Shown here in pieces: positions 12,324 through 36,973 of a stretch of 64,000 bases of DNA. A program made the translations under genes and the position numbers. The stretch spans positions 127,123-191,122 of IMG/VR virus record IMGVR_UViG_3300042868_010004. One strand, 5' to 3'. The DNA is from a virus. The notes beneath the pieces were generated by a model. It was given only the letters and a program-made list of their open reading frames with translations, had not been told where the DNA came from and ran no database searches. The stretch's first letter is position 1; each line of letters starts with the position of its first letter.

Positions 12324-13871
12324 ATGGCATCAAAATCCCTTTTTTCAGTTGAAATTGAACAGTCAATCCTTGCAATTCTCTTACAATACCCCGAATCCTA
12401 TGTAGAAATCCCCTTCATCAACTCAAAAGATTTCTCTCGGCAGAACTCCCCGATCTTCGCCGTTATATCAAACATTGTTGAGAATAAGGGTCGCCCGGAT
12501 GAAATTGTGGTAGCCGAAAAACTGAAATCCCTCGGGATTACATTGGAGGGGCTTGAGGTGGGTGATTTCTGCTCTGCATTGAAAATCCGCCCTGTCGATA
12601 AACGGAATATTTTGGATTTGGCTAAAGCCTTAAAGAAGAAAACTCTCATCCGAACCATCCACGAGAACGCAATCAAAGTTCAGAAGGAGGTTTTGGAAAA
12701 TGAGGATAAATCGGCGAAGGAATTGGTTGGAATCGCGGATAAGTATTTGGGAGAATCTTTAATTAGCATTACCCAGAATGAGCGTGAGGCGAAGAACCTT
12801 CTGGAAGAACTTCCTTCCGTGATTGAAGAAATGGGCAATCCGGAAAATATCAGTGATTTTATCAACATGCCGTATAAAACATGGAATGATATTATCGGGC
12901 CACTTCGTCCGGGACAGATTTACATGTGGGCGGCTCGACAAGGATCAAAAAAATCTACTTTACTCCTTGATATTACGCGAGATATAGCAGCGGCCAATCC
13001 AGACAAGGAAGATATGGCTGTATTATTTTTAGATTCCGAGATGACAATTAATGACGCCATCGTTCGTTATGTTGCGGGAAATATTGGTTGTCCACCATTC
13101 TTGATGGATTCTAAGAAATGGAAATTTTCGAAAGAGTGGGCTCCCAAAATTAATGAGGAGGTTCGGCGCATTCAAAACTTAAAACATAAGAATATTTGGT
13201 TTGAACCCATCGGGAATATGGGAATGTCAGAGGTTGAGAAATTTGTCAAACGATGGAAATTGACTAAGTGCGGTCGTTCACGTTCTTCTGTTATCGTATA
13301 TGATTATTTCAAGTTGAATAACAACGACAAGAAAGAGCTTAATTCAAAAGAGGGAGAGCACAGTCAGTCCTACCAGAAGATCGAAATAATTAAAGATCTT
13401 TGTGACTGGACAACCTCCCCGCTTCTTTCTGCTCTACAACAAAATCGTTCTGGTGATATTCTTAGTAAAGATGGTCCGGACGATTCCTCGGCATCGAATT
13501 CCCTCAGTGATAGGATCGGATGGTTGGTTGCAGTTCTGGCTATTCTTCGTGGGCGCACTCCTGATGAAATGCTGAATGATTCAACTCCGGAGATGAAAGC
13601 CCCGTCAAATAAAATGATTTTTCAGAAGACTCGCTACCTGTGGGAACATGGTCCAGCGTTTTTGAATTACATTAGGGTTGGCAAGGGTAAAGACGTTAAA
13701 TATACCCCGAACTTCATGAATTTCGATATTACCAACTTCAAAGTGACCGATTGCGGCACGCAGGACCAATGGCTTATTAAGACGGGTCAGCAGGCCGTAA
13801 AAATCAATAAAGCAGTTAGCGAATCGAAACTTATTAAGGAGGCGGATAAGGGTGAAGAACCTGCATTTTGA
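12324..13871 (+). CDS. dnaB: DnaB-like replicative helicase
   Basis: N-terminal EIEQSILAILL; AARQGSKKST (variant Walker A), FLDSEM, VYDYFK, ALQQNR. Confidence 0.9.
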   Translation: MASKSLFSVEIEQSILAILLQYPESYVEIPFINSKDFSRQNSPIFAVISNIVENKGRPDEIVVAEKLKSLGITLEGLEVGDFCSALKIRPVDKRNILDLAKALKKKTLIRTIHENAIKVQKEVLENEDKSAKELVGIADKYLGESLISITQNEREAKNLLEELPSVIEEMGNPENISDFINMPYKTWNDIIGPLRPGQIYMWAARQGSKKSTLLLDITRDIAAANPDKEDMAVLFLDSEMTINDAIVRYVAGNIGCPPFLMDSKKWKFSKEWAPKINEEVRRIQNLKHKNIWFEPIGNMGMSEVEKFVKRWKLTKCGRSRSSVIVYDYFKLNNNDKKELNSKEGEHSQSYQKIEIIKDLCDWTTSPLLSALQQNRSGDILSKDGPDDSSASNSLSDRIGWLVAVLAILRGRTPDEMLNDSTPEMKAPSNKMIFQKTRYLWEHGPAFLNYIRVGKGKDVKYTPNFMNFDITNFKVTDCGTQDQWLIKTGQQAVKINKAVSESKLIKEADKGEEPAF

Positions 13872-13969
13872 TGAATGTCATTGATTTAGATAAAATATTC
13901 TATCTCGGGATTCAAGCTATTGTTTTTAGCGACAATATTACAAATTTCAATAAATCTATTCACTTCTAA
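13871..13969 (+). pseudogene. truncated 5' stub of the primase gene
   Basis: ATG overlaps dnaB TGA; MNVIDLDKI vs primase MNKIDLEKL (21/27 nt identical to 15157-15183). Confidence 0.55.
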
Positions 13970-14953
13970 CTCCTGCTTCATTCTATTAATATCCCAAATA
14001 CATAATACAACATTGTCTTTCACATATCCCTTTCCTGAGTCAATTCTGTCTATACTCAAAACATTTTTATGGTTTGGTTTCCACGATAATAACTCACCGG
14101 AATAAAAACAAAAACCTTTCTGTTTTTTGAAGATTTGTAACATATACTCTAAATCTATATTAAAATCCCAATTCATTTTCAAACATCGACTCTTACCAAA
14201 TTTAATTTTCTGTTTCAACATTTGCTCTAGTATTAATCTTTTGTTTTTATTTTCATTTTTTCGATCTAGAATTTTTTTATATTTATAAGTGATTTTAAGT
14301 TTTTCGCATCTATGGATAATGGAAATGTCACTTCGGATGAGAGTTTTGGAGATTTCATCAATATCAATATTATTATCGAGCATATCAATCAATAGGCGGT
14401 CTTCCTCTTCACACCAAGACCGGCCACCCTTGGGGTTTCTAAACCCATATTGCCGACATATATATTCCACGGTCTCTAGGGGCAACTCCGTTTTGATGCT
14501 TATAATCTTTTTTGTAAATTTTTTATTTTCTAACATGTTTTTAATGTCAGATAAAAGGCTATCGGAATATTTTCTGGAGGAAATAGAACTAGTCTGATAT
14601 CCCTTGTCCGAGCCATTGAACTCTGATTTTCTGACTAGCCCGAGTTTTTTTGAGACACCCTCTGCTTCATAAGTGGTAAGCCCTAATTTAGACCCAATTT
14701 CTGACATTGGTAAATTCTCGAAAAATAAATTTCTAAATTTTAAAACAAATGAATCTTCAAATGTTACCCCTTTTTTGAATTTATATTTCTTTCTGATCCC
14801 TATTTTGCCCTTTCTTGCGTCTATGGCGGGGCGCGTAGTCCCCATCTCGACAGCAATTTCAAATACCCCCTTGCCTTTTTCGCACAGAGATATAAGTTTT
14901 TCATCCAGTTCCTTTGTCCACTTAATTTTTGGTAGATTTGATGTGTTTTTCAT
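13886..14953 (-). CDS. HNH-like (His-Me finger) homing endonuclease with Myb-like repeats
   Basis: WTKELDEKL, WCEEEDRLL; FNIDLEY..KQKGFCFYSG..SIDRIDSGKGY; likely ATG 14953. Confidence 0.8.
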   Translation of the reverse strand: MKNTSNLPKIKWTKELDEKLISLCEKGKGVFEIAVEMGTTRPAIDARKGKIGIRKKYKFKKGVTFEDSFVLKFRNLFFENLPMSEIGSKLGLTTYEAEGVSKKLGLVRKSEFNGSDKGYQTSSISSRKYSDSLLSDIKNMLENKKFTKKIISIKTELPLETVEYICRQYGFRNPKGGRSWCEEEDRLLIDMLDNNIDIDEISKTLIRSDISIIHRCEKLKITYKYKKILDRKNENKNKRLILEQMLKQKIKFGKSRCLKMNWDFNIDLEYMLQIFKKQKGFCFYSGELLSWKPNHKNVLSIDRIDSGKGYVKDNVVLCIWDINRMKQELEVNRFIEICNIVAKNNSLNPEIEYFI

Positions 14954-15074
14954 ATTGTTCAGTAATCCCGTTTGAAATAATAGTAACAAGCTTAAGGCCG
15001 CTTAACTTAGCGATCTCTCTTAGCTTGGCGTCTGTTTCTGGCTTTAACTCCAAATTTAATCTTTTGATGCTCAT
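14922..15074 (-). CDS. ribbon-helix-helix (CopG/Arc-like) protein, 50 aa
   Basis: Manual translation MSIKRLNLELKPETDAKLREIAKLSGLKLVTIISNGITEQYEKHIKSTKN*; overlaps HNH start. Confidence 0.7.
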   Translation of the reverse strand: MSIKRLNLELKPETDAKLREIAKLSGLKLVTIISNGITEQYEKHIKSTKN

Positions 15075-15156
15075 ACTACACCAGTTTACACCAAATCATT
15101 CAAGCGGAGAAAAATTATCTTGCTGTTCCTCGAAAATTTAGAAAAATCCCACGTAA

Positions 15157-16068
15157 ATGAATAAGATTGATTTGGAAAAATTAGAAAACAAAGTAACCCA
15201 ATCGGACGGTTCTTGGGTTTGTTTTTGTCCTGCGTGTGGAGAAGAGGGGCGTAATTTACGGTCTAAGAATCACTTGCGCGTTTGGCCCGACTTGCGTTTC
15301 AATTGTGTCGTTAGCACGGGGGACCGCCAGCACAACTCAAGAATTCTCCAATTAGTCGGAACCGAATCGGACGGAATACTGACTCATTATACCGCCCGAA
15401 CTGAAGAGCCCAAAATTAAACAACCCGCGACTTGGCCGCTATCCATTCTCGACAAGCTGATTTTTGATTATTCCTATTTCGAATCCCGAGGAATCAGTGC
15501 GGAGACTCAAAAGCATTTCCGAATGGGCGTGGCGAGCAGTGGGCAGTTGAATGGCCGGGCGATTCTCCCTATTTTATCCCCGCAGAAAGATAAAATTATC
15601 GGGTTCACGGGCCGACTCATAAATTATACTAAATGGCACAAGGAAAACAAGATACCCAAATGGAAACATCTCAATCCGTCCGGCAGTTTCCTGCTTGTTG
15701 GTGATGAATTTTCTATTCGCGAATCCCGAACAATCCTCATAACGGAAGGCCCAGCAGACATTCTAGCACTATATGAAGCCGGAATACGGAATACAATCTG
15801 CTTATTCGGAACGACAATCAGTTCAAAGCAACTTGGTTTTCTAATTAAGAGCAATCCATTAAAAATTGTAATTGGATTGAATAACGAACCCGGAAATAAA
15901 AATATTGGCGGGATCGCTGCCGAAAAGCTCCGGAAGACTCTTTTGAATTATTTCTCGGAAGAAAGGATAATTATTGCGCTCCCGAAGGCTAAGGACTACA
16001 ATGACTGGCTTTTGGAAAAAAATGGAAAATCAGAGCTTGACGAATACCGAAAAACATGGCTTCCTTGA
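15157..16068 (+). CDS. dnaG: DnaG-like DNA primase
   Basis: Zn finger CPAC..H..C; YFESRGI, IIGFTGR, KWKH, TOPRIM ITEGPADILAL, KDYND. Confidence 0.88.
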   Translation: MNKIDLEKLENKVTQSDGSWVCFCPACGEEGRNLRSKNHLRVWPDLRFNCVVSTGDRQHNSRILQLVGTESDGILTHYTARTEEPKIKQPATWPLSILDKLIFDYSYFESRGISAETQKHFRMGVASSGQLNGRAILPILSPQKDKIIGFTGRLINYTKWHKENKIPKWKHLNPSGSFLLVGDEFSIRESRTILITEGPADILALYEAGIRNTICLFGTTISSKQLGFLIKSNPLKIVIGLNNEPGNKNIGGIAAEKLRKTLLNYFSEERIIIALPKAKDYNDWLLEKNGKSELDEYRKTWLP

Positions 16069-16072
16069 TTGT

Positions 16073-16336
16073 ATGGAAAACGAACACCAGCCCAACATCC
16101 CAATTCTGAAAACCCACGTCTATTTTCAGAACCGCGTCTTCTTCGTTTCAACGATTGAACGAACATACGATACCTACGCAGGCTCCTCTCGGGGAAATGA
16201 GACTATGGCATGGGAGGTCGATCCTAAGACTCTGGCCAGAGGGGCTTGGTTGTATCAAGGCGGCGGGCCGAATGACCATTTTGATGTTTGCCGACAATTG
16301 GTTCTAAGTGGGGAAATTAAGGAAAAGGATGAATAA
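16073..16336 (+). CDS. hypothetical protein
   Basis: ATG 16073 within ORF 15974..16336. Confidence 0.6.
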   Translation: MENEHQPNIPILKTHVYFQNRVFFVSTIERTYDTYAGSSRGNETMAWEVDPKTLARGAWLYQGGGPNDHFDVCRQLVLSGEIKEKDE

Positions 16337-16511
16337 AGAAATAGAACTTTTCCCCGGACAGAAAGACAAGACAAAACCTCTGTTCAAAACAAAAAAAGAA
16401 TATCGGGAGTGGTGTGATCATTTTTGTGAAAAAGTCGCCCCGCAATTAGAAGAACTGAGAATTAAAAGAATGAAATCCGAGCGGGAATCACTAATCAGAA
16501 TTGTAGATTGA
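16329..16511 (+). CDS. hypothetical protein
   Basis: Packed + strand ORF. Confidence 0.55.
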   Translation: MNKEIELFPGQKDKTKPLFKTKKEYREWCDHFCEKVAPQLEELRIKRMKSERESLIRIVD

Positions 16512-16972
16512 AAATAAAACCAACAGATATGATCGACCAAATACCAGAATCAATTCGGAAAATTATTAAGAATCTGAGGGGACAGGACGGCAGATGCACG
16601 AATTTACCGATCTTCTGCGTTCAGAAGAAAGAGCGGACTTACGGATTTGATCCCCATTGGTCCGACGAGTTCATTTGGATGGACAGAAGTGAAGAGGTAT
16701 ATGATGAAGACTTGCTTGCCGTTCTAAATAAAAAAGACGAAATGCATGACGATATTGACTACCGATTTTACAAATGCTATTACCGGGACACTTGGCTTTC
16801 CGTCCAACCATTCCTAACCGAAGTCGGCGCGCAAGCATACATTGACTGCAATGCACACAATCTTGGCGGGAAGGAGAACTGTCGGATCTATGTTGAGTCC
16901 GGCTGGCGGAATGCTGAATGGCAAGAAATTCGATCTTTCCTCTTGACTCTGGACGCTAAAGCAACAGACTGA
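16508..16972 (+). CDS. Ead/Ea22-associated-type phage protein
   Basis: TNLPIFCVQKKERTYG..FLTEVGAQAYI..HNL..RIYVESGWRNAEW, recalled motif. Confidence 0.5.
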   Translation: MKIKPTDMIDQIPESIRKIIKNLRGQDGRCTNLPIFCVQKKERTYGFDPHWSDEFIWMDRSEEVYDEDLLAVLNKKDEMHDDIDYRFYKCYYRDTWLSVQPFLTEVGAQAYIDCNAHNLGGKENCRIYVESGWRNAEWQEIRSFLLTLDAKATD

Positions 16973-16991
16973 ACTCGCATAAACCCTCATT

Positions 16992-17327
16992 ATGAAAACC
17001 TCCTACCAACCCACCCTTGAACTAACCCCCGAACAGAAAACCGCAATTCGTTTGCGTTATCCCAAGGTCGATCTTGATGAAATACCTTATGTCGGAACTC
17101 TGAGGTCTCTGGATTGCTCGTTCGATCACGAATTCGGCACGCAGAAAAAGATTGAGTTTGCCATTGATTGGTTGGAAGTAGGATTTGACACTCTGGAGGG
17201 CATTAATCCACATACGCATTTCACTCTGATTGATCGTTCGGTGGAGTTGAGTCAAGCCTTGTTTGTCTTAACGGAGAGCCAGAAGGAATTGGTGATTCGG
17301 AACCTAATGTTGACGACCGTTGATTAA
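16992..17327 (+). CDS. hypothetical protein
   Basis: Packed + strand ORF. Confidence 0.65.
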   Translation: MKTSYQPTLELTPEQKTAIRLRYPKVDLDEIPYVGTLRSLDCSFDHEFGTQKKIEFAIDWLEVGFDTLEGINPHTHFTLIDRSVELSQALFVLTESQKELVIRNLMLTTVD

Positions 17328-17331
17328 ATTT

Positions 17332-17580
17332 ATGACAAAAAGTGACCTATGGGCGGAAATTAGTAAGAAGAATCCGGGTTTTAACTCCGAGGGGAATGTA
17401 ACGCTGAGTGCAAAAGGTTTGCGGAAGATGTTTGATCTAGCCTATGGCAAGGGATTCGATCAAGGGAAAGCTGTCTCGGCGGCTTTGAACGATCTTGCAA
17501 AAAGCGCAAACGGATTTGACGCAGGCGGAATGAATGAAATGAATGCTTTCAAGGATATTTTCGGAGGGCTCGGAAAATGA
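17332..17580 (+). CDS. hypothetical protein
   Basis: Packed + strand ORF. Confidence 0.65.
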   Translation: MTKSDLWAEISKKNPGFNSEGNVTLSAKGLRKMFDLAYGKGFDQGKAVSAALNDLAKSANGFDAGGMNEMNAFKDIFGGLGK

Positions 17581-17783
17581 TTAAAGTTCAACAAGAGGGC
17601 TGCCCAGTTTACTTCAAGCAAACCGATGACGGGGTTTTGGTTTCGGCCCATACTGATTTGGGCGAATTTTATACTTCGATTCATCTGTATAACTGGTCCC
17701 CTGCCGAACTCCGATATGTCGCGGAGGCATTAGAAGAAGCACGGGCGAATGGCGGGCGACTCATAATGGAAATTAAATCTTAA
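17577..17783 (+). CDS. hypothetical protein
   Basis: ATGA overlap. Confidence 0.6.
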   Translation: MIKVQQEGCPVYFKQTDDGVLVSAHTDLGEFYTSIHLYNWSPAELRYVAEALEEARANGGRLIMEIKS

Positions 17784-17789
17784 AAAATC

Positions 17790-18131
17790 ATGAAAGAACA
17801 AATTAAATATCCAATTACAGTTTATTCGGTCGATGAGACTCATTCTTACGGGGCCGACAAGCGGGGCGCGATATCGTCCATAGTCTTTGAATCAGAACCG
17901 GATAATTCAAAAAATCACCATTTTGATAGTCTTTATCATCGAATTAATGGTGATTATTTTTATGAGTGCTATTCTTATTATGACGGTATGACAGAAACGA
18001 AGTATTATCTCAATCCGAACAAGGCAAAGGCTCGGGCCAAAGAATTGACTGAAAAGGCATTGGCGGCGGCTAGGGAATGTGTGGAGAAACTTGAGAAACA
18101 ATTAAAAGACATTGGGGGGTTTGGGGGATGA
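17790..18131 (+). CDS. hypothetical protein
   Basis: Packed + strand ORF. Confidence 0.65.
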   Translation: MKEQIKYPITVYSVDETHSYGADKRGAISSIVFESEPDNSKNHHFDSLYHRINGDYFYECYSYYDGMTETKYYLNPNKAKARAKELTEKALAAARECVEKLEKQLKDIGGFGG

Positions 18132-21744: not shown

Positions 21745-23421
21745 ATGAGTGATATTTGGGATGGGGTTGAAATAAGTGTCAAGCAGGACGTTTCATCAGG
21801 AAGAGGTTCTTCTTGGTCTAAAGAAGATGAGAAATTCCTAAGAGATAACCATGATCTTCTTGGTAGAAAAGAATGCGCCAAAAAACTAGGGAGAACATTT
21901 TCGGCAGTTTGCTGTAAAGCTAAAAAGATGGGGTTAAACGTTGATACGAAAATAGATCAAGGGATTGTAGATTTTCTAAAAGAGAATTATTCCAAATTAG
22001 GTCCAGCTAAATGTGCCGAAATCTTGGGAATGCCTAAAAATAAAGTATATTCAATTGCTACATCCAGAAAAATACATGGTGGAAGAAACTTTGAATGGCA
22101 TGACTATGAAATTCAATATTTGAAAGACAACGTTTATAAAAAGAGTCTATATGAGATATCTTCCTTCTTACAAAGAACACAAAGTAGTATAAAAAATAAA
22201 CTTCACAAATTAGATATTTTAGAGGATAGAAAATGGAAAGATGAAGAAAATATTTTATTTAAAGAAATTTATAGTAAAAAAACTCTAGATGAATTGGTTG
22301 ATATCTTTAAAAGGACAAAATCCTCCTTACAGGGTCATGCATTCAAATTAGGAATTACTGATAAGAATAAAAATTGGTCTGATGAGGATGATTCGTTACT
22401 TAAAAAAATTTACCCAACTAAAGAAACTGGTTTTTGTGCAATTTTACTAAAAACAACACAAAGAGCAGTTGCTTCTAGAGCGTTTACACTAGGATTAGAA
22501 AAAGGTAAAATTGTTTACGAGCAGGATGATATGAAATCATGCTCAAAATGTAAACAATATATACCAATTAATAGCTATTTATTCCAAAATTCTAAGAATT
22601 TATATTCAGCGGCCTGCAAAGAATGTCAAAATAAAAAAGCTAAAAATAGGGGAATTACTTTCCCCCCAGAACAAGAGACAGAAATAAAAAGATTATTCTC
22701 TCTGGGTATGGGATCACCCGAAATCGCCGAAACGACAAAATTTAGTGGTAGATCTAAAATATCTCAGTTTTTAAAACAAAATGGACTCAGAAGGACATCG
22801 GCTTTTCGCTTCAAACAGAAATTTAAAGACAGAGTTGGTAAAAAATTTAATTTGTTAACCGTTTTAGACAGACATGTTGATGATAAGGGAAGGACTTCGT
22901 ATACTTGTTTATGCGATTGCGGGAACACAGCAGTGATCAAAGGAGACGGCGTTTTCTCTGGAAAAACCAGAAGTTGTGGTTGTCTTTTATCCAGAAAGGG
23001 TATTGATAACCCGAACTGGGGAGGTGCCGGGGAGATATCGGGTCAAGTATTTTCTTCAATTAGGGGTGGTGCGGCATCTAGAAATTTAGAATTTAATATA
23101 AGTGTCGAATATATTTGGGATTTATTTCTAAAACAAAATAGAAAATGTGCCATCTCTGGATTAGATTTATGTTTCGCTATAAATGACCAAGAAAAAACAG
23201 CCTCATTAGATAGAATTGATTCTAACCTTGGATATACCCAACAAAATATTCAATGGGTTCATAAATATGTGAATTTTCTCAAACGCGAAATACACGATAT
23301 TGATTTTTTTACTATTGTAAAACATGTTTATGAGTTTAAAAAATTGAATGAATATAGCCCAAGCGATTTATTAGAAGCGTTTAAACAAAGCCCCTATTTT
23401 TCTAGATTTAATAATGAATAA
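21745..23421 (+). mobile_element. free-standing HNH-like homing endonuclease with Myb-like repeats
   Basis: 4 W(S/H/K)xxE repeats, CSKC..CKEC, CLCDCGN..RSCGC, FNISVEY..KCAISG..SLDRIDSNLGY; AT-rich. Confidence 0.8.
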
Positions 23422-25999
23422 TTTCACTTCCAATTTCTCTAAATATACCATTGAAAATTATGGTTACATTCGCCTGCCCGAGATCCGAATTACCGATGAA
23501 CAGAAGAAAAATCTAAATCTTCCCGATGATGTTTCCAATCTAGAATTTTGCCGCGCACTCGCTAGACAAGGCTGGAAAGAGCGCTGCAAACATGTTAAGA
23601 AAGAAGATTATCCTAAGTATAAAGAACGCATTGAATACGAACTCGAAATTCTAAACGAGTTGGGATTCATTGATTACATGTTACTTGTTTGGATGGTTAT
23701 CAATAAAGCTCGTGAGTTAGGGGTTTTTATTGATTACGGGCGCGGATCAATCGGTGGCTGTTGTATTGCTTGGTTGTTGAAAATTACTGGGTTCCCCGTC
23801 GATCCAATTCGTCACGGCCTCTTCTTTGAACGCTTTGTAAGCAGGGCTCGTAATGGCAAGAAGATGATCGACGGTAAGTTGTTCTTAAAGGGTGACTTAC
23901 TGGCCGACGCAGACGTTAACCTAGGTAATGGCAGGGATTTACTAGTTGCTTGGCTCAAGGAAATTTATCCTAATTGTGTATCTAAGATTTCCAATATCTC
24001 TACATTTACCACTAAGATTCTCCTCAAGGACGTTTACAAATCTTTAGAAGAAGTTAACGAGGATGAGGCCCGTCGTGTGGCTGATATGATTGAAGTCCGA
24101 TTCGGGGTCGCTCAATCTATTGATGAAGCATATAAGGAAAGTAAGGAATTCAAACAGTGGGCGGATGAACACCCCGACACCGTTTCTGTTTGCAAAAGAC
24201 TATGCGAAACCATGCGCGGCACATCCAGTCACGCTTCCGGTTATCTCGTATCCTTTTATGAATTAACTGATTTGATCCCAATTGAGATTAATAAAGAGGG
24301 TGATATTGTCAGCTCGTATGATATGAAAATCGTCAGCAATTTTGCGACGAAATTAGACCTTCTTTCCCTCACCACAAATGCAATTATTAAACGAGTCGCC
24401 GATATTATCCCCGAGAAGATTGATGAGATTAATCTAGATGATGATCCATTTATTTATGAGAAATTTCAGGATAGTAAACTCCTACCTTATGGTCTTTATC
24501 AAATTTCGGCTGATTGCGCATATGGAGTAACAGAAGCGATTAAACCTAAAAATGTTAATGAGTTGAGTGACATTAATGCGCTGGCCCGGCCCGGAAGTTT
24601 GAGTTATGTAAATTCCTACAAAAACAATAATGCGGAGGCTGTTCATAAAGTATTCGAACCCATTCTATCCCAAACCCGTAATGTTCCGCTTTATCAAGAG
24701 CAGTTAATGAAAATGTCGGTGGCCATTGGATTTACAAATGAGGAAGCAGAGGTGATTCGTAAAATTGTAGGTAAGAAGGACTTGCAAAAAGTAAAGGAAT
24801 GGGAAAAGAAAATTTATGATAAGTGCGAGGAAAAGGGGTTTGATAAAACTGTAGCCGACGCGATTTGGAAGCTTCTAAACGAGTCAGCTTCGTATTCATT
24901 CAACAAGGCGCATTCTATCTCGACATCCTATCTATCCGCATTAACGGTATATTTGAAATATAAATATCCCTTGGAATGGTATTGGTCTTGTCTCGTTGGA
25001 ACAAAAGATTTGGCTAACCCCTTAGAAGAAATTACTGCGATTCAAAAAGAACTAGAAATTTTCGGTATTAAACTACTCCCTCCAGATATTATTAAGAGTG
25101 AGTATGATTATACCATGGAGAATGGGGGTATTCGAACGGGATTAAGCAGTGTTCGAAATCTTTCGGATGCCAATCTAGAGCGGTTAAAGTCTTTCAGGGC
25201 GACTGTTACTAATAAATTCGATCTCTTCCTAAGTATTCAGAATGCAAAGTTACCGCTAGGTGTTGTATCCTCTCTTATTCTAAGTGGCGGGTTCGACAGT
25301 GTTTCTAATTCAGGAAGAAATAAAACGTTACTCGATTTCGAAATATGGAATGAGCTGACACCCAGAGAATTACCCATCATTAACAATCTCGGCTCTCGCT
25401 TCAATTTTGACTTAATTGAGATTCTGAAACGGGCCTCCACCGACCTGAAGGACGAAAAAGGCAAACCGCTGATTAAAGAATCCCGCCTGAATACCCTCCG
25501 AACCAAGACTAAACCGTATATTTTAAAGTTCAAATATAATGAACGCTTCAGCGACCTAACGACTTATTTGGCCGAAAATCATTACCTCGGCTTCTCCTAC
25601 TCTCACACTCTGAAAGGCATTTACAGCAAACATATAAACAACCTTCTGAGCTTAAAAGAACTCCGAACCGCCCCGGACAGAAAGGAAAATTACATCTCCG
25701 TAGTTCAGATCGGAGAGGTCGAGAAGAGAACCAGTCGGAATAAAAAAGAGTATGTCCGGTATACTCTGAAAGACGATTCAGACAGTTTGACCGTTATGGA
25801 TTTCCAACTTGACAATCGGGGCGGAAAGAAGTTTTCTGAAGATATGATTTGCGTCTTTCATGTCTCAAAAAAGAAAACTGAAACTGGGGATTTCTTATAT
25901 TTTGTCTCTGACATCGTGGAGCAAGAAGTCCCGACCGTCTTGAAAACGAGTGTTGTGAGGAAAGAACTGGAAGACAAGCAAAGCAAGGAAAATAAATAA
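23414..25999 (+). CDS. dnaE: DNA polymerase III alpha (DnaE) core lacking PHP domain
   Basis: ERIEYEL..GFIDYML, GRGSIGG, FFERF, ADADV, SSHASG, KLDLL, LYQEQLM, YSFNKAH, C-terminal OB fold. Confidence 0.92.
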   Translation: MNNFTSNFSKYTIENYGYIRLPEIRITDEQKKNLNLPDDVSNLEFCRALARQGWKERCKHVKKEDYPKYKERIEYELEILNELGFIDYMLLVWMVINKARELGVFIDYGRGSIGGCCIAWLLKITGFPVDPIRHGLFFERFVSRARNGKKMIDGKLFLKGDLLADADVNLGNGRDLLVAWLKEIYPNCVSKISNISTFTTKILLKDVYKSLEEVNEDEARRVADMIEVRFGVAQSIDEAYKESKEFKQWADEHPDTVSVCKRLCETMRGTSSHASGYLVSFYELTDLIPIEINKEGDIVSSYDMKIVSNFATKLDLLSLTTNAIIKRVADIIPEKIDEINLDDDPFIYEKFQDSKLLPYGLYQISADCAYGVTEAIKPKNVNELSDINALARPGSLSYVNSYKNNNAEAVHKVFEPILSQTRNVPLYQEQLMKMSVAIGFTNEEAEVIRKIVGKKDLQKVKEWEKKIYDKCEEKGFDKTVADAIWKLLNESASYSFNKAHSISTSYLSALTVYLKYKYPLEWYWSCLVGTKDLANPLEEITAIQKELEIFGIKLLPPDIIKSEYDYTMENGGIRTGLSSVRNLSDANLERLKSFRATVTNKFDLFLSIQNAKLPLGVVSSLILSGGFDSVSNSGRNKTLLDFEIWNELTPRELPIINNLGSRFNFDLIEILKRASTDLKDEKGKPLIKESRLNTLRTKTKPYILKFKYNERFSDLTTYLAENHYLGFSYSHTLKGIYSKHINNLLSLKELRTAPDRKENYISVVQIGEVEKRTSRNKKEYVRYTLKDDSDSLTVMDFQLDNRGGKKFSEDMICVFHVSKKKTETGDFLYFVSDIVEQEVPTVLKTSVVRKELEDKQSKENK

Positions 26000-31121: not shown

Positions 31122-31328
31122 ATGGATTCAAAAACATATACAGAACGACTTGATGAAGAACTGGCTGAGATTTTCGCCGAATGCGATGATGAATGCGAGA
31201 ATGGGAATTACCATCACCTGATCGGTCTGGCGGAAAGCATTTTTGATGAGGTTTGGCCTTATGTTCCGCTCGGTGATCGCATTACGGTCGCCAAGGCAAT
31301 TTCAGAGAAGATTCAGAATTCATTCTAA
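31122..31328 (+). CDS. hypothetical protein
   Basis: Packed + strand ORF. Confidence 0.6.
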   Translation: MDSKTYTERLDEELAEIFAECDDECENGNYHHLIGLAESIFDEVWPYVPLGDRITVAKAISEKIQNSF

Positions 31329-31340
31329 AAACCCAATTTC

Positions 31341-31787
31341 ATGTCCCATCAATCCCTACCGAACAGTTTAAATATCGCCGAACCCGCCCTTCTATCATCC
31401 CATAATCGAATAATTCAATCCTTCACTCAGAATAATATCCCCTTCGAAGCCGAATACAATCAGGAATTCGACCCGGATTTCAGCTCGACCGTCTTCTATA
31501 CAATTCAGACCAATGACAAACGCTGCGGCTTCATCAGTTGTCCTAACGGGAGATTTGCCGGGGCGATCATCAAAGGAGAACGCATTCGATATTTGCAAAA
31601 AGAGGGGTTTGACATGGAGGAGTCGCTGGACTCTGAACCGGTCTTCGCAAAAGCCCCTTGTGTCATGGCGTTTGTTAGTATGTTGGCTGTTGACTTACTC
31701 GGGAAACTGGAGTTTGATTGCGACCTGATTGAGGAGTTTGATGAGACGACCAAAGATAGAAAAACGAAGAAAAAGAAAACTAAATAA
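31341..31787 (+). CDS. hypothetical protein, paralogue of 31799..32185
   Basis: LNIAEP..SEPVFAKAPCVMAFV..LIEEFD. Confidence 0.75.
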   Translation: MSHQSLPNSLNIAEPALLSSHNRIIQSFTQNNIPFEAEYNQEFDPDFSSTVFYTIQTNDKRCGFISCPNGRFAGAIIKGERIRYLQKEGFDMEESLDSEPVFAKAPCVMAFVSMLAVDLLGKLEFDCDLIEEFDETTKDRKTKKKKTK

Positions 31788-31798
31788 AAATCCCTAAA

Positions 31799-32185
31799 AT
31801 GAATAATCCTCTCAACATTGTCGAACCGAGCCTTCTGGCTCTCCATCAAAAAGTCGAGCAAACCCTCAATCTGAATGGCATTCAATTCACCGCTACGTAT
31901 TACAGGGAGGAAGATCCCAAATTTAACTCTTCCGTTCGTTATCACACGGAAATCCCCTTTAGAGTTGGCTTCATCGTTTCGAACAAGGGGGAATTCGGTG
32001 GGGCTGTTGTGAAAAGCTATAAAGGAAATAAAGATGGTAGTTCCGAGCCCGTCTTTGCATCCGCTTCCTGTGTTATGGCCTTCGTCGGGATGTTTGCCAT
32101 TGACAAAATTAAGGAATTGAAATTCGGAGATGAATTGATTAAAGAGTTTGACGCACTAAATAAAAATGACAAAAGCAAAAAATAA
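31799..32185 (+). CDS. hypothetical protein, paralogue of 31341..31787
   Basis: LNIVEP..SEPVFASASCVMAFV..LIKEFD. Confidence 0.75.
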   Translation: MNNPLNIVEPSLLALHQKVEQTLNLNGIQFTATYYREEDPKFNSSVRYHTEIPFRVGFIVSNKGEFGGAVVKSYKGNKDGSSEPVFASASCVMAFVGMFAIDKIKELKFGDELIKEFDALNKNDKSKK

Positions 32186-32411
32186 TACAAGCAAGACAAA
32201 GGCCGCTAAGACAATTAAGCCTGCCAAGAAAGTTCGGATTTGGTGGTTAAAACGGGAAGGTTGCGGTTACTGGACTGATAATCCCCCTGACTGGATCGGG
32301 GAATTTCAGGCAATGGCGGATGGAGATGTCTTTACGATTGAGCGTAAGGAACTCAGCCAGAGGGAGTTCAACAAACTGGCGAAAAATTCTGGCGAGTTTG
32401 ATGGTTGGTAA
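32166..32411 (+). CDS. hypothetical protein
   Basis: Packed + strand ORF. Confidence 0.6.
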   Translation: MTKAKNNTSKTKAAKTIKPAKKVRIWWLKREGCGYWTDNPPDWIGEFQAMADGDVFTIERKELSQREFNKLAKNSGEFDGW

Positions 32412-32426
32412 AACAATTTCTGAATT

Positions 32427-32663
32427 ATGATTGACAAAATTAAACACACAAAGGCAGAATACATTGAATCCGGCTCATATCAGGGCGGCGAGGAAGAGGC
32501 TTGGGATATCGGAGTTCGTTCAGGGGATGATTGCGTAGTTATGAAAGAAGCTGAATTTCAGAAGATCGAACTGATTTTCCGGCTGATTGAGAACGATGAT
32601 TCGGGCGATTTTGAATTTATTAAGCATCAGATTGGAAAGATTCTAACGGGGGAAAACGCGTGA
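32427..32663 (+). CDS. hypothetical protein
   Basis: Packed + strand ORF. Confidence 0.6.
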   Translation: MIDKIKHTKAEYIESGSYQGGEEEAWDIGVRSGDDCVVMKEAEFQKIELIFRLIENDDSGDFEFIKHQIGKILTGENA

Positions 32664-32971
32664 AAATGGCCAAAGCCAACTTCTCAGAATGGCAAAATTT
32701 AATGGATTTTGCTAATGAATACGAGGAAATGACTCGTCCATTCAGCCTCAAGCCTCCGTCCGATGCCGAACTTGGCGCGCTGATCCGGAAATTCAACCCC
32801 CAGTTCTTCCGAACGGTTTTCGGTTATGCAACTCTGGTTGACAATTTCTGTGATTCCAAATCGGATACTCTAGCGGTTGAACCGAAATTAGCTAAACTAA
32901 TGGAGGACAATCAATTTAAGATTGAGGGCGGGAATTATTTCAAGACAGAAGGGGATGCTGGCAATGAGTAA
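32660..32971 (+). CDS. hypothetical protein
   Basis: GTGA overlap. Confidence 0.65.
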   Translation: MKMAKANFSEWQNLMDFANEYEEMTRPFSLKPPSDAELGALIRKFNPQFFRTVFGYATLVDNFCDSKSDTLAVEPKLAKLMEDNQFKIEGGNYFKTEGDAGNE

Positions 32972-33509
32972 AGAACAGTGTAATAAATATCTGCATCCCC
33001 AAGGAAAAGACGGACCACGGGCTTGTCAGGTCTGCAATCTCGGTCCTTGCAAATTCCAGTCGTTCGGCGATCCGCCTCCTCTGGTTATTATAGTTGATTT
33101 CTTTAAACCCTCCGGCAAATGGTATGCGGGCGGGGAAGTCAAACTTAGTCCGGATACGTGGCCGCATTCACCTGACCTAAAACAGCAAATTGTCGATAAT
33201 CAAAAGGCTTTGCAAGACGGTTGGCAAGGGAATTATATCGTGGTGACGGATTATAACCCTGACAAGTCCGACAGGTTCTTCAAGTCGGTCTATCAGCCGG
33301 AGGAGTTTATGTTTGTCAGTAAGACCAAAAGTAAAGAAAAGAAGACGGCGGCGGAATGGCTGAACGAGCCAGAATTTTCTGACTTGATTCTTCTTGACAA
33401 TTGGCCGGTAAACACCGAATATAGCAGGGAGGAGTTCGAAGAGAAACTTCTGGCAAGCCGGGTTCAAGTTTCTAGTCAGAAGTTAAAACAAATGATTCAG
33501 TCTAAATAA
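32964..33509 (+). CDS. hypothetical protein
   Basis: ATG 32964 within ORF 32922..33509. Confidence 0.65.
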   Translation: MSKEQCNKYLHPQGKDGPRACQVCNLGPCKFQSFGDPPPLVIIVDFFKPSGKWYAGGEVKLSPDTWPHSPDLKQQIVDNQKALQDGWQGNYIVVTDYNPDKSDRFFKSVYQPEEFMFVSKTKSKEKKTAAEWLNEPEFSDLILLDNWPVNTEYSREEFEEKLLASRVQVSSQKLKQMIQSK

Positions 33510-33525
33510 TTTCATTCATTCATAT

Positions 33526-34122
33526 ATGCCTAAGGTAAAAATTCTCGTTAAGAAAGTTGAAGGACTAAAACTACCCGTTAAGGCAAATGATCTCGATGCC
33601 GCCTATGATGTTTTCTCTACATCTGGACCGAAAATTATCGGGACGGAAGTCGGAGGTGGTATTTATTCCGAGATTGATTATATTGAATATGGGACGAATC
33701 TTTTTGTCGCTCCGCAAACAACCGAGGAGGAGTTTGATATGAGGGGTTATACTTATTTAGATATTAATGATTGGTGGTTACAAGGACTACCCCGTTCAAG
33801 TATCAGTAAATACAATTTAATTCTTGCGAACTCTTGTCCTACAATAGATTGTGGGTTTAGGGGAGAGATCCGGATTCGTATGAAATATATTGTGCAGCCA
33901 TCAGATTTAGTTCTTCGACCTTATGCCTACGCTAATGAAACTCATTGGGAAGTTATGGGGGCGCGGGTCAATCTTGATAAATGCTACAAGGTCGGGGATC
34001 GCGTCTGCCAACTTCGCCCGGTGAAAAACATTGATATTGATTGGATTGAGGTTGACGAATTAGAGGAAACGGACAGAAATGAGGGCGGCTTCGGATCGTC
34101 TGGCGGGAATTCGGCAAAATAA
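33526..34122 (+). CDS. dut: trimeric dUTPase
   Basis: AAYDV, PRSSISK, TIDCGFRGEI, DRVCQL, RNEGGFGSSG. Confidence 0.92.
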   Translation: MPKVKILVKKVEGLKLPVKANDLDAAYDVFSTSGPKIIGTEVGGGIYSEIDYIEYGTNLFVAPQTTEEEFDMRGYTYLDINDWWLQGLPRSSISKYNLILANSCPTIDCGFRGEIRIRMKYIVQPSDLVLRPYAYANETHWEVMGARVNLDKCYKVGDRVCQLRPVKNIDIDWIEVDELEETDRNEGGFGSSGGNSAK

Positions 34123-34127
34123 AAAAC

Positions 34128-34394
34128 ATGAGCAAGACTCCAAAGGATAAATTTTCACCCGGACAATACTGGTTTGCAATCCAGAAGGAGGATGGGCAAG
34201 GCGTCCGCCATCAGATTGTTGAGCATAATAGGGAGGATGACCCGGAAAATCAGGGTGGGGTGCCGACTGAGCCCGAAATTATAACTTGGTCCGACCCGAC
34301 TGCAAATGGAGGGCATACATGGAGGGGGCCGAAGGAAGAGTTTGAGAAGCGGTTTAAATGGATTGGGTTTGATAAGAAAACAGGAGATAAATAA
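34128..34394 (+). CDS. hypothetical protein
   Basis: Packed + strand ORF. Confidence 0.6.
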   Translation: MSKTPKDKFSPGQYWFAIQKEDGQGVRHQIVEHNREDDPENQGGVPTEPEIITWSDPTANGGHTWRGPKEEFEKRFKWIGFDKKTGDK

Positions 34395-34982
34395 TTGATG
34401 AATAAAAAGTTGCACATTTTTCAAGACCTCGACGGGTGCCTAGCAGACTTCTGTAATGCCGCGATGAAAGCTCTCGGCGTGACAAAATATACAATCCCCC
34501 CGAATGAGCCAAATATGGAGAAGTGGCCGGGTGTAAATTGCACCACGAAAGAATTCTGGCTGGCAATTGATAAGACAGAGGAAGACTTCTGGGTCGGGAT
34601 TGAGAAGTTCCCCCATTCGGACCCAATCATGAAAATGCTTCATACCTATGGGGACGTTTTTTTTCTCACGAGCCCATCGCGGAATCCGAAATGTCTGTCC
34701 GGGAAAGCCATGTGGATTAAAAAGCACTATCCCCGCATGGTCAGAAATGTAGTTTATACTCCTGCGAAATATCTTTGTGCCAATTCGCATTCTATACTTT
34801 TAGACGACACGAGCGCGAAAATAAAGAAGTTCGCCGAACATGGGGGTTGGACAATCATGTGGCCGCAACCTTATAATGAAGCATGGGCGGATTTTCAACC
34901 GTATAAGGGGAATTATCAGGAGTATATTCGGGTGAAGCTGGAAGAAATCAAAAGCAAGATTCAACAAGACTATCAGGCATGA
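34395..34982 (+). CDS. HAD-family 5'(3')-deoxyribonucleotidase
   Basis: DLDGCLADF, FLTSP, GKAMW, ILLDD, QPYN. Confidence 0.88.
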   Translation: MMNKKLHIFQDLDGCLADFCNAAMKALGVTKYTIPPNEPNMEKWPGVNCTTKEFWLAIDKTEEDFWVGIEKFPHSDPIMKMLHTYGDVFFLTSPSRNPKCLSGKAMWIKKHYPRMVRNVVYTPAKYLCANSHSILLDDTSAKIKKFAEHGGWTIMWPQPYNEAWADFQPYKGNYQEYIRVKLEEIKSKIQQDYQA

Positions 34983-35128
34983 CTAATACTAATCCAACCA
35001 CAATCAATGTTTTCTGTCTTTGGAAGAATAGCGAACCGCATATTCAGAGGACGTTATACCAGCTAGATAATCTTCTGGCTTTACCGAATTTTAAATTCAA
35101 CCTGTTTTTAGTTTGGCATTGCGCCTAA
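34979..35128 (+). pseudogene. truncated 5' stub of the glycosyltransferase gene
   Basis: ATGA overlap with nucleotidase; INVFCLWKNSEPHIQRTLYQLDNLLALPNFKF is 22/32 identical to aa 6-37 of ORF 36080..36973. Confidence 0.85.
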
Positions 35129-35888
35129 GATCATCCCCTCCTAAATTTCTCCATCCCTTTACCTTTTTTATTTTGTCTTTTGAAAGCGCCCATATACTAG
35201 ACGCTTCAACACCTATTTCTTCGGCAAATTTTTTCAGGCTGCTTCCTTCTCTTATTTCTCCTGACTCGAAAATAAATCGAAAAATAGCCCCCTTTTCTTT
35301 TGGCGGGTTATCCGGATTTGTCCAGCCCTTATATCGCGGTATCTTTCCGGTTGAAACTGCGTATAAACCGCTAGTGTCGAAATTTGGAAGATTTTCCCGA
35401 CAAAATTTCCTTAAATTAGATCCTTCAATAATTTCCCCCGATGGGGATTTCAACCTAAAATTTTTAGCCAAATGATTTTGATTATAAAGCGTTTGTCTAA
35501 TTTTTGTTTTTGTATCTTCCCTCACTTTTCGCCCCTTTGTTTTGTCTCCTATCCTTCTTCGCGTTTCTTCTGAAAAGATTCGGTTCCCTTTTCCGCCTGT
35601 GTCTAAATTATACCCCCTAGGGGACAGGCTCTTATATAGTGTTATGAAGGTTTGCTCTAAATGATTTAGTTTTTCGGGCGAGTCTGTTTCCCATATAATT
35701 TCTTTTTTTAGTCTATTTTTGCCACCATTTTTAATAATAGATTTTATAATCATACCACTCCCTACATACCAATGATCTTTTTGCGGCAATCTTTTGGTCA
35801 TTCTTTGCCCAATGTAAATTTTACCGTTTTTAGTATCAGTCGTTTTATAGATGTAAAAATACTTTGGCGCGACATACTTTCTACTCAT
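35097..35888 (-). CDS. GIY-YIG homing endonuclease with NUMOD3
   Basis: YIYKT..KIYIGQ, YVGSG, EQTFI, GYNL, FSEETRRRIG, two C-terminal DNA-binding repeats. Confidence 0.9.
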   Translation of the reverse strand: MSRKYVAPKYFYIYKTTDTKNGKIYIGQRMTKRLPQKDHWYVGSGMIIKSIIKNGGKNRLKKEIIWETDSPEKLNHLEQTFITLYKSLSPRGYNLDTGGKGNRIFSEETRRRIGDKTKGRKVREDTKTKIRQTLYNQNHLAKNFRLKSPSGEIIEGSNLRKFCRENLPNFDTSGLYAVSTGKIPRYKGWTNPDNPPKEKGAIFRFIFESGEIREGSSLKKFAEEIGVEASSIWALSKDKIKKVKGWRNLGGDDLRRNAKLKTG

Positions 35889-36025
35889 TTTACCCCCTCT
35901 ACAATCAAAGCCCTTTTGATGACTTCTGCCATGCTGATTCCTTGCTCCTTAGCTTTCGCCTTTAAAGACTCCTTTTGGGAGTCTGTTAGAAAAACCTCGA
36001 TTTTTTGCTTGCCTTTTAGTTTCAT
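35885..36025 (-). CDS. ribbon-helix-helix (CopG-like) protein, 46 aa
   Basis: Manual translation MKLKGKQKIEVFLTDSQKESLKAKAKEQGISMAEVIKRALIVEGVK*; ATGA overlap with GIY-YIG. Confidence 0.8.
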   Translation of the reverse strand: MKLKGKQKIEVFLTDSQKESLKAKAKEQGISMAEVIKRALIVEGVK

Positions 36026-36079
36026 ACATGTAAGGATACACGGGGAATGCAGGAAAGAGAAAACAGAAAAGACAATTTT

Positions 36080-36973
36080 ATGACAAAAACAGTAATCAAT
36101 ACTTATTTACTCTGGAAAAATAGCGAGAATCATATTCAGCGGACTCTCTATCAGTTGGAAAATTTAATGAAATTGGAGGATTTTCAGTTCCAATTTTTCA
36201 TGTACGGCAACGATCACGCGGACCTAACGAATGAAATTCTTGAACAGTGGAAGGCAAGCCATCCAGAAGTATTGATTGTCAATCAGTATGAGGAATTGGG
36301 TGCGCCTTCATTTGGTTCGGTTCAATCAACAATCAGAACCTCGCTTATTGCCCACTACCGGAATAAATGCAAGAGAATGGGTCTGAATTATGATTCTCGC
36401 GCGTCTCTTGTGATCGACACTGACATTGAATGGACGAGCGATGACTTTTTATCCCTGTATAACAATCTAGTCATTCTCCCTTTGTGTGTCGGAGTTATCT
36501 CTAGCACTATTCAGTCGAATATTCCGGACTGGACGGAAAACATAGATCCGTTCAGTCAATATGATTTATTTCCATTCAGAGATAAACTTGGCAATCCGGG
36601 ATGTTATTTCAGTCGGACCCCGTTCTATCTGGAAGAGGACCGCCAGAAGTTTTTGGCCGGGGAGCCTGTGGAGATAGCGAGCGGATTCGGCTCAATGGCG
36701 CTATACGATTCTAAGACATATAATGATTGTCAGTATTCTGGTTCGTTCAATAGTGAGCATATCGCGCTATCTTATCAAATTCGTCAATTCGGAAAACTTT
36801 ACGTTGACCCCAAGGCGGTCCCTTCGACCACGATAGATCTGTCATCTGTCAATCTGGATGCCTGCCGTCAAATCGGGGCCGACAATTTTAAGAGAATGAA
36901 GGAAGTCAATCGGCTTCACAATTGGGCTTTGGCGGAGAAGTATGAATTTGAATTTAGAGCGAAAAACGCTTGA
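36080..36973 (+). CDS. GT-A fold glycosyltransferase (GT2/Anp1-like)
   Basis: IAHYRNKC, DxD motif VIDTDIEW, YDLFPFRD, SGFGSMALY, SEH. Confidence 0.7.
   Translation: MTKTVINTYLLWKNSENHIQRTLYQLENLMKLEDFQFQFFMYGNDHADLTNEILEQWKASHPEVLIVNQYEELGAPSFGSVQSTIRTSLIAHYRNKCKRMGLNYDSRASLVIDTDIEWTSDDFLSLYNNLVILPLCVGVISSTIQSNIPDWTENIDPFSQYDLFPFRDKLGNPGCYFSRTPFYLEEDRQKFLAGEPVEIASGFGSMALYDSKTYNDCQYSGSFNSEHIALSYQIRQFGKLYVDPKAVPSTTIDLSSVNLDACRQIGADNFKRMKEVNRLHNWALAEKYEFEFRAKNA

Follow-up and report, generated by a model that had tools for sequence, protein, structure and literature searches.

Free-standing homing endonuclease genes (HEGs) are thought to be confined to the gaps between genes, since inside a gene only an intron or an intein would make their insertion harmless. 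For the HEGs of phage T4, one-sided homing with illegitimate junctions, co-conversion of the flanks, autorepression by I-TevI and the antisense gene segD have been reviewed, and one-sided illegitimate repair is documented for T4 intron homing (PMC2988022). In fungi, the mitochondrial mORFs of Allomyces (atp6) and Glomus (atp6, atp9, cox2 and nad3) brought a foreign 3' end to the gene that they entered, and a remnant of the native end is left (PMC3630166, PMC4019555). The Arc protein of the IS605-family transposons, a ribbon-helix-helix (RHH) protein, binds and represses the element's own promoter, as demonstrated experimentally, and arc genes next to HEGs were remarked on in the same report, but not studied (bioRxiv 10.64898/2026.09.24.754181). 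Here we describe two cassettes, each composed of a small RHH gene and a nuclease gene in inverted orientation, in a stretch of 64,000 nucleotides (nt), hereafter called the window, which corresponds to positions 127123-191122 of the complete 191,122-bp virus record IMGVR_UViG_3300042868_010004 with direct terminal repeats. Each cassette ends inside a short 5' stub of the downstream gene, and an intact, divergent start of the same gene lies on the other side. With somewhat better than even confidence, we regard them as two independent free-standing HEG cassettes, which moved by intronless homing with a one-sided junction inside a gene and whose RHH protein restrains the cassette promoter.

The window has a clear strand bias, with 115 plus-strand and 7 minus-strand open reading frames (ORFs) in a greedy ORF set, and both cassettes coincide with dips in the G+C content and the GC skew. 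An initial annotation of the window regarded them as its only two real minus-strand units. This is about right: they contain the sole minus-strand ORFs with family matches, and three of the five other minus-strand ORFs were scanned, and none of the three has a convincing family match. Both cassettes lie between plus-strand genes. Cassette 1 is located between the gene for a DnaB-type helicase (12324-13871; PF03796, PF00772 and phrog_19, E 2.3e-33; stop codon TGA at 13869-13871) and the working gene for a DnaG-type primase (15157-16068; phrog_47, E 2.2e-26, and Toprim_2). On the minus strand, the gene for RHH1 (14922-15074), a probable RHH protein of 50 amino acids with Arc-like matches (phrog_582 and phrog_876), overlaps by 32 nt the start of the gene for nuclease 1 (13886-14953). 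Nuclease 1 has 355 amino acids, with four helix-turn-helix (HTH) modules and a C-terminal HNH-fold domain (phrog_3322, E 5.5e-21; phrog_1035 and phrog_323). The working primase gene starts 82 nt beyond the RHH1 ORF, and two GTGTA boxes on the minus strand (15077-15091), 10 nt apart and at -7 and -17 from the RHH1 ATG, form a candidate promoter or operator.

Cassette 2 is located between the gene for an NT5C-type 5'-deoxynucleotidase (34395-34982; PF06941, E 9.8e-8; phrog_2643) and a working gene of the glycosyltransferase (GT) type, which ends at 36973. The ATG at 36080 agrees with the starts of the GT homologues, and another in-frame ATG is present upstream at 36047. Eleven homologues of the GT were found in lake and other metagenomes, two of them with a weak match to CAP59_mtransfer. 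The gene for RHH2 (35885-36025, minus strand, 46 amino acids) precedes that for nuclease 2 (35097-35888, minus strand) with an ATGA overlap, and a GTGTA box is located at 36037-36041 on the minus strand, at -16 from the RHH2 ATG. Nuclease 2 is a GIY-YIG protein of 263 amino acids with two repeated C-terminal modules that are presumed to bind DNA (phrog_314, E 3.7e-30). The two units thus share one architecture despite unrelated nucleases, as had been proposed: a minus-strand operon with a gene for an RHH protein of about 50 amino acids, followed by a modular nuclease gene. The stop codon of each nuclease gene lies inside a 5' stub, at 13886-13888 in the primase stub and at 35097-35099 in the GT stub, so that about three codons and the stop of each nuclease ORF are within the stub. 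Both stubs are still coupled to the gene upstream; the ATG of the primase stub shares one base with the DnaB TGA, and the GT stub has an ATGA overlap with the nucleotidase gene.

The primase stub (13871-13897, plus strand) has nine codons. Its 27 nt, ATGAATGTCATTGATTTAGATAAAATA, are identical at 21 of 27 positions to the primase start at 15157-15183, for which the binomial chance is about 4e-7 at a single position expected beforehand. It reads MNVIDLDKI, and the homology ceases after codon 9, while an unrelated open frame continues to 13969. Related primases begin with MNVIDIEKL, MSNVIDLDKL or MNVIDLEKL, and because of these matching N-termini the stub, though short, is identified from its sequence as a genuine primase start. 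The nuclease 1 stop codon falls within codon 6 of it. The stub is also present in the relative L020, and five of the six differences between the two are synonymous in the stub frame.

The GT stub is much longer, with a 49-codon ORF (34979-35128, plus strand), of which the first 43 codons, to about 35107, correspond to the GT N-terminus. When the GT was compared with its own genome by tblastn, the stub was found with an E value of 3.4e-12 and 57% identity over GT residues 13-54. The homology extends to residue 43 of the stub and ends just short of the most conserved motif of the family, Y-x-N-D-N/H. An alignment with eight homologues indicated that all of the family-conserved positions (W-K-N-S, H, R-T, Q, D-N-L and F-x-F) are kept in the stub, and no frameshift or stop interrupts the 43 codons. 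Because every family-invariant residue is kept, the GT stub, judged from its sequence, diverged while it was part of a working gene.

The relationship of the GT stub to the start on the other side of the cassette bears on the origin of both. Over 36 residues, the stub is identical to the phage's own GT at 23 positions and to eight relatives at 24-28 positions. In the codon alignment, its nucleotide identity is 65% to its own GT start and 71-74% to the relatives, and the own GT start is 70-73% identical to the same relatives (36 codons, no close relatives). The GT stub is a separate allele from the 'intact but divergent copy' noted in the initial annotation, not a fresh duplicate. Partial duplications can occur at illegitimate insertion sites, and the stubs could in principle be decayed tandem duplicates of the resident gene start, produced when the cassette was inserted and with no foreign start imported. 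The GT stub, however, is closer to the relatives than to its own GT start, and its conserved residues and unbroken 43 codons point to divergence under selection in separate genomes, not to decay. From this conservation pattern, tandem duplication followed by decay was rejected and is almost certainly not the origin of the stubs. The sequences of the GT stub and the working GT start indicate separate histories, which exclude a recent duplication and fit the import of the working start with the cassette.

The initial annotation predicted that relatives without the cassettes should have the flanking genes directly adjacent, with N-termini similar to the stubs, and such empty alleles were found for both junctions. 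In L024, an IMG/VR contig, the DnaB stop codon is followed by 3 nt and the primase start; in L009, L012 and L013, the NT5C stop codon is followed by 2 nt and the GT start. In all of them, the N-termini are stub-like. In ten more distant relatives, DnaB is followed by the primase, either directly or with a small co-oriented ORF between them. No stub without a cassette was seen among the relatives. L014 and L015 carry an unrelated gene of 70 amino acids between the nucleotidase and GT genes, and this ORF, considered as a candidate stub or RHH gene, is neither.

Other mobile genes were observed around the GT gene in the relatives. L012 (3768-4562) and L013 (2497-3315) have a co-oriented GIY-YIG nuclease gene directly after the GT gene, despite their empty nucleotidase-GT junction. 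The encoded nuclease shares the two-repeat C-terminal architecture of nuclease 2 (23% identity, E 1e-11). Since L012 and L013 carry this gene after the GT gene, the GT gene attracts HEGs at both ends. L014 (5317-6534) and L015 (4502-5683) have a TnpB-like gene (OrfB_IS605, Cas12f1-like_TNB) two genes downstream of the GT gene.

The following searches for further relatives gave no match: blastn of both cassette regions against 50,697 phage records, tblastn of RHH2 against the phage records, single-protein scans of IMG/VR with the primase and with the GT, a scan of IMG/VR with the GT alignment, and a first metagenome scan with a short primase alignment. The GT was also sought in two related phage fragments, and was not found there.

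The primase cassette recurs in three relatives, L020, L025 and L038, each time with an RHH1-like gene. In L020, the gene order is identical to that of the window: DnaB, stub, nuclease, an ORF of 50 amino acids, and primase. The nucleases of the two loci are 70% identical, and the small ORFs are also 70% identical, with equal length and the same 32-nt overlap. The nonsynonymous (pN) and synonymous (pS) divergences between the window and L020 were 0.20 and 0.74 for nuclease 1, and 0.23 and 0.75 for RHH1. Because pN values of 0.20-0.23 are far below the saturated pS of about 0.75, both genes are real and, from this comparison with L020 only, evolve under purifying selection. In L025 (IMGVR_UViG_3300037882_004127, 3098-4431), the corresponding site holds an RHH1 homologue of 54 amino acids followed by a 390-residue nuclease, both likewise inverted. 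This nuclease has an N-terminal HTH module homologous to that of nuclease 1 (30% identity, E 2e-5), and its catalytic domain is of the PD-(D/E)xK/TnsA-like type, which replaces the HNH fold at the same DnaB-primase junction. In L038, an HTH-type nuclease gene and, before it, a fourth homologue of RHH1 are inverted upstream of the primase; a second nuclease gene of L038, co-oriented and located after the primase, has no RHH gene. The conservation of the RHH ORF with the nuclease, which had been in question, is thus observed: in four diverged loci, the nuclease on the primase side is accompanied by the RHH1-like gene. As read from these sequences, the operon of RHH and nuclease is a recurrent module at the 5' side of the primase. 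Replacement of the gene start had been presented as the defining trait of the cassettes; this did not hold, as L025 has the RHH and nuclease genes at the same site with no stub, and the stub is not an obligatory part of the module.

The gene starts next to the cassettes are mosaic. The DnaB proteins of the window and L020 are only 27-29% identical, whereas the stub, cassette and primase start are 70-82% identical, and the nucleotide identity climbs from about 40% to about 77% at 13868, where the DnaB stop and the stub start are located. Over primase residues 13-62, the identity is 82% to L020, 70% to the primase P0071 and 41% to the primase P0070, whereas over residues 121-240 it is 72-78% to P0070 and 47-53% to P0071. 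The other N-terminal type is common to L025 and P0070 (82% identity), which diverge later in the protein. These identities show that the first 62 or so codons of the primase (15157-15342) are of a different ancestry from the rest, as far as ancestry can be read from the sequences compared. The GT is likewise mosaic among the relatives. Mosaic starts are consistent with HEG-driven co-conversion of the flanks, and are not proof that the nuclease causes the mosaicism. As a separate observation, a C-terminal DnaB tail, E/K/Q-P-A-F, is common to the window (13840-13871), L020, L024 and L025 (Q-P-A-F in L025), while the rest of the protein is 27-31% identical. It may have been conserved for interactions at the C-terminus, or may mark a recombination junction.

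Both units had been described as free-standing HEG cassettes, and the proteins agree with this description, since their nuclease domains are of HEG families and are fused to DNA-binding modules. The C-terminal domain of nuclease 1 matches PHROGs named endonuclease, endonuclease VII and HNH endonuclease, with E values of 1e-17 to 1e-21. In the AlphaFold2 model, this domain has pLDDT values of 83-93, and the strands at 298-303 and 315-319 and the helix at 320-328 form a beta-beta-alpha-metal fold; the top Foldseek matches were Gme HNH, the HNH domain of Cas9 and PacI, with probabilities of 0.94-1.00. The DHHRN family, to which endonuclease VII-motif enzymes belong, is characterized by a central DHDH motif, in which the first His is invariant and which lies between CX2-4C and CX2C (PMC6083498). 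Nuclease 1 was considered as a member and rejected: its central motif is D-R-x-D, not DHDH, the flanking Cys pairs are not conserved, and because the invariant His is replaced by Arg it lies outside the family. Its domain is conserved and is a predicted, putatively catalytic nuclease domain. Residues 272-356 of nuclease 1 (about 13886-14140 of the window) also match PHROGs annotated as 'Srd anti-sigma factor' (E 1.7e-11) and 'decoy of host sigma70' (E 1.6e-8). These two families may, on the basis of these matches, be related to the nuclease 1-type domain.

Nuclease 2 was assigned to the GIY-YIG superfamily from its sequence. It matches TIGR01453 'group I intron endonuclease' (E 1.2e-6) and SegE_GIY-YIG (E 0.0011), and its homologues have GIY-YIG and NUMOD3 domains; its scores with the Pfam models do not reach the cut-offs (PF19835, 19.7 against 25; PF01541, 12.5 against 22.6). 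The motifs YIY-x9-YIG, followed by Arg, Glu (LEQTF) and Asn (GYNLD), are present at roughly the expected places, as read from the sequence with no characterized enzyme aligned.

A third HEG-like gene was observed in the window, at 21745-23421 on the plus strand. It encodes a protein of 558 amino acids of the nuclease 1 family (phrog_323, E 1.4e-29; phrog_3322, E 4e-21), is co-oriented with its neighbors, has a G+C content of 32%, and overlaps the start of an ORF of 861 amino acids (23414-25999). Neither an RHH gene nor a stub was found for this nuclease. A genome scan with the RHH_1 profile and the ORF lists also found no RHH gene for the phage's other GIY-YIG gene and for a further HNH-like match in the genome.

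Bare RHH proteins of about 50 amino acids, such as Arc and CopG, are typically repressors. RHH2 scored 23.4 bits against the Pfam RHH_1 model (cut-off, 20.5), matched the Arc-like phrog_3180 with an E value of 6e-6, and had VapB26 and CopG as PDB matches, and by these profile matches it is a member of the RHH (Arc/MetJ/CopG) superfamily. The case of RHH1 is less clear. It matches the Arc-like phrog_582 and phrog_876 weakly (E 0.027-0.045), and its L025 homologue does so at 0.0045. Its model, of low confidence (pLDDT 64), shows two to three helices behind an unstructured N-terminus, and the Foldseek matches are nearly all RHH proteins, but with non-significant E values of at least 0.5. We lean towards the assignment of RHH1 as an RHH protein. 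No similarity between RHH1 and RHH2 was detected by hhalign.

An RHH gene is missing beside co-oriented nucleases of the same families: in the window at 21745-23421, in L038 for its second nuclease, and in L012 and L013 for their GIY-YIG genes. This distribution is consistent with RHH as the repressor of the promoter of the inverted cassette. RHH proteins may also have another function, as TraY, NikA and MbeC act as accessory DNA-binding partners of relaxases, and the cassette RHH proteins could be accessory DNA-binding subunits, not repressors, which help the nuclease to find or distort its target. RHH2 weakly resembles the NikA-like, MobA, MbpA and TraJ families, and a swap of the catalytic domain leaves RHH1 paired with the HTH module. 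However, an obligatory subunit would be expected with all of the nucleases, including the co-oriented ones, whereas only an inverted gene, which must have its own promoter, would require a regulator. In addition, RHH proteins of this size are usually repressors, and the Arc repression of IS605 promoters has been shown. We judge the accessory role to be quite improbable.

The gene order, in which a small RHH gene overlaps the nuclease start, is also that of type II toxin-antitoxin operons, and RHH2 has weak matches to the VapB, RelB and BrnA antitoxins. The cassettes might thus be immobile, either as toxin-antitoxin-like pairs or as domesticated RHH-nuclease modules, for example for cutting co-infecting relatives. 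The strong purifying selection on nuclease 1 and RHH1 across a saturated synonymous divergence, and the maintenance of the cassette at the same locus in diverged phages, would agree with this. On the other hand, the RHH proteins are bare domains of 46-54 amino acids without a toxin-binding tail, and the nucleases have the typical HEG architecture of a nuclease domain and DNA-binding repeats. The variable presence of the cassettes among relatives and the mosaic starts of the adjacent genes are as active homing predicts. A classic type II toxin-antitoxin pair was rejected, as the partners are HEG-type proteins, not known toxins, and the RHH proteins are bare domains; immobility in the broader sense is, in our estimate, unlikely.

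A possible target of the RHH proteins is the GTGTA box, which is found 16-17 nt before the start codons of all five RHH genes, with the -17 box in all four loci of the RHH1 family and a second copy, 10 nt closer to the ATG, in three of these four. No other tandem pair like that at 15077-15091 occurs in the 191-kb genome. Within 25 nt of a start codon, GTGTA(A/T) occurs in only 6 of 320 ORFs. The box also precedes four genes at 55-85 kb of the genome by 15-16 nt and the other GIY-YIG gene by 18 nt; these GTGTA(A/T) boxes lie near genome positions 44660, 55020, 57160, 82097 and 84085. A near-identical string, CCGTGTATyCTTA, precedes RHH2 and the other GIY-YIG gene (genome 43512-44657). GTGTA(A/T) may serve as a late promoter, as an operator for RHH, or in both roles. 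Neither cassette has a predicted terminator, and a promoter for the replaced downstream gene, which the element had been supposed to carry, was not found.

From these sequences, we infer cleavage, homing, immunity by the new start, and repression. In an allele without the cassette, the nuclease would cut within the 5' part of the downstream gene. A cassette-bearing phage would serve as the template for repair of the right-hand end, and the gene start of that phage would be copied along with the cassette. In the founding event, the left-hand end would have been joined inside the gene, not upstream of it, by one-sided, illegitimate repair, and the resident's first 9 or 43 codons would have been left behind as the stub. 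The insertion would be harmless without splicing, as the downstream gene would restart at the imported start. This gene is probably still transcribed by read-through from the upstream operon, because no terminator is predicted in either cassette. The arrangement would then be inherited. Further homing could follow, with flanking homology supplied on one side by the stub or upstream region and on the other by the downstream gene. Because of its inverted orientation, the nuclease gene needs a promoter of its own, and RHH most likely represses this promoter (GTGTA box), which would keep the nuclease low and timed. By analogy with Arc in the IS605 elements, RHH would act on the GTGTA region as an autorepressor.

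The start replacement may alternatively be a built-in design, in which the nuclease, the RHH gene and the new start enter a single target gene together, behind its codon n. Two homology arms within one gene, the stub and the new start, would then give an intron-like portability without splicing, and the diverged start would provide immunity. Two unrelated nucleases in one genome have the same layout, each with about three codons and the stop inside the stub, and the GT stub ends just before the most conserved motif of its family. The stub, cassette and primase start shared with L020 lie beside a DnaB of low identity, with the change in identity at the stub, and the mostly synonymous stub differences fit stubs sampled from working genes. 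Against these points, a cassette of this family occupies the DnaB-primase junction of L025 with no stub, and an arm of 27 nt is very short for homologous repair. The change in identity also falls at an ordinary gene boundary, where three of the four loci keep the DnaB tail E-P-A-F and L025 has Q-P-A-F, which may reflect function, and only two independent cases are available. A built-in design is possible, and we hold it to be doubtful. If it is true, arms within one gene would let the cassette cross between phages with unrelated neighbor genes, and the catalytic domains would be exchangeable while the targeting and regulatory parts are kept. We would also put forward only tentatively that start-replacing cassettes, with an inverted nuclease, RHH on its own promoter and a recoded start, are a distinct and widespread way for HEGs to live inside genes without an intron or intein.

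Several observations weigh against the interpretation as homing cassettes with one-sided junctions and an RHH-restrained promoter. The phage is uncultured and known from sequence alone. Because the synonymous sites between the window and L020 are saturated, cassette 1 is old at its locus, and this agrees with long residence or domestication no less than with repeated homing. For cassette 2, no relatives were found elsewhere among the GIY-YIG homologues, by the RHH2 tblastn or in the GT alignment scan, and in six fetched contigs of the same phage with the GT, the cassette is identical in all, with no cassette-free variant. Because L025 carries the same cassette family with its nuclease gene ending within the last DnaB codons and no primase stub, the stubs may be incidental scars. 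The primase stub comprises 27 nt only, of which 12 also encode the C-terminus of nuclease 1, and a third homologue of nuclease 1, P0065, has the same C-terminal tail. Nuclease 1 has Arg at the position of the general-base His of HNH and endonuclease VII enzymes, and S-I-D-R-x-D-S is invariant in eight homologues. The closest GIY-YIG homologue is inverted, yet no RHH gene was called upstream of it. Finally, a sigma-70 promoter scan of both cassettes gave nothing above chance.

If the cassettes act as we propose, they represent a third route by which a HEG may be accommodated within a phage gene: a new gene start is brought and the old one is abandoned. If this is general, it would explain some of the 'fragment' ORFs and the mosaic 5' ends of phage replication genes, and would be a warning for annotation, since short ORFs that adjoin the stop codon of an upstream gene may be relics. 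The stub end would also be a simple signature that may predict the cut site of an uncharacterized nuclease. The pairing of RHH with nucleases of swapped catalytic domains (HNH-fold and PD-(D/E)xK) provides a compact natural system for studying how selfish nucleases are restrained.

The initial annotation proposed a new mobile-element class. Its description of HEG cassettes with an imported start, empty alleles in relatives and a conserved RHH partner stood, but the novelty was overstated and the stub is not universal, as seen in L025. The precedents are gene-end replacement in fungal mitochondria, the MobA element of the T4 type, and the Arc repressor of a nuclease-bearing element. The layout is real and recurrent, and it is a variant of known homing-endonuclease behavior, not a new element class. 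In the literature, the coverage of which was incomplete in our search, we found no description of an RHH and nuclease cassette that replaces a phage gene start, or of phage 5'-stub layouts.

At the level of the enzyme, nuclease 1 resembles F-CphI and the DHHRN endonucleases as a free-standing phage nuclease with a C-terminal beta-beta-alpha-metal domain, and 'endonuclease VII' PHROG families match it, but the DHDH motif of those enzymes is D-R-x-D in nuclease 1 (PMC6083498). At the level of the element, the cassettes share with the free-standing HEGs of the T4-like phages (SegB, SegF, SegG and MobE) nucleases of GIY-YIG or HNH type with DNA-binding modules, and their position as optional genes between conserved genes (PMC2988022). 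Those HEGs spread by double-strand-break repair with co-conversion of the flanks, the donor allele is protected by sequence differences, and antisense segD, late promoters and the autorepression of I-TevI are also known among them (PMC2988022). The cassettes differ from them in the left junction, which lies inside the downstream gene and results in a stub and a restart at the imported start, and in the separate RHH gene that we propose as the regulator, whereas I-TevI of T4 represses its own promoter.

The IS605 Arc is similar to RHH1 and RHH2 as an RHH protein of about 50 amino acids inside a nuclease-dependent selfish element, but the element is of the TnpA/TnpB type, and no sequence relationship of Arc to RHH1 or RHH2 is established (bioRxiv 10.64898/2026.09.24.754181). 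The MobA element (mobA with the gene 60 bypass cassette) is likewise an HNH endonuclease element inside a phage gene, with an element-encoded homologue of the displaced target segment and a new start for the downstream part (bioRxiv 10.1101/2022.08.31.505936). In contrast to the cassettes described here, MobA is co-oriented, has no RHH gene, leaves the topoisomerase gene divided into two functional subunit genes, and lacks a dead stub because the target segment is deleted; its immunity comes from a 50-nt translational bypass insert. The gene hybrids of the fungal mORFs have the same set of parts as the cassettes, namely an endonuclease ORF with a diverged copy of the gene end and a remnant of the native end, with no splicing (PMC3630166, PMC4019555). 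The window has this feature in mirror image, at the 5' end, in the GT gene and, along a short stretch, in the primase gene. The fungal elements replace the 3' end of the gene, whereas here the 5' end is replaced, so that a new translation start is required, and the nuclease gene is inverted and not in frame with the host gene, in a phage and with an RHH partner.

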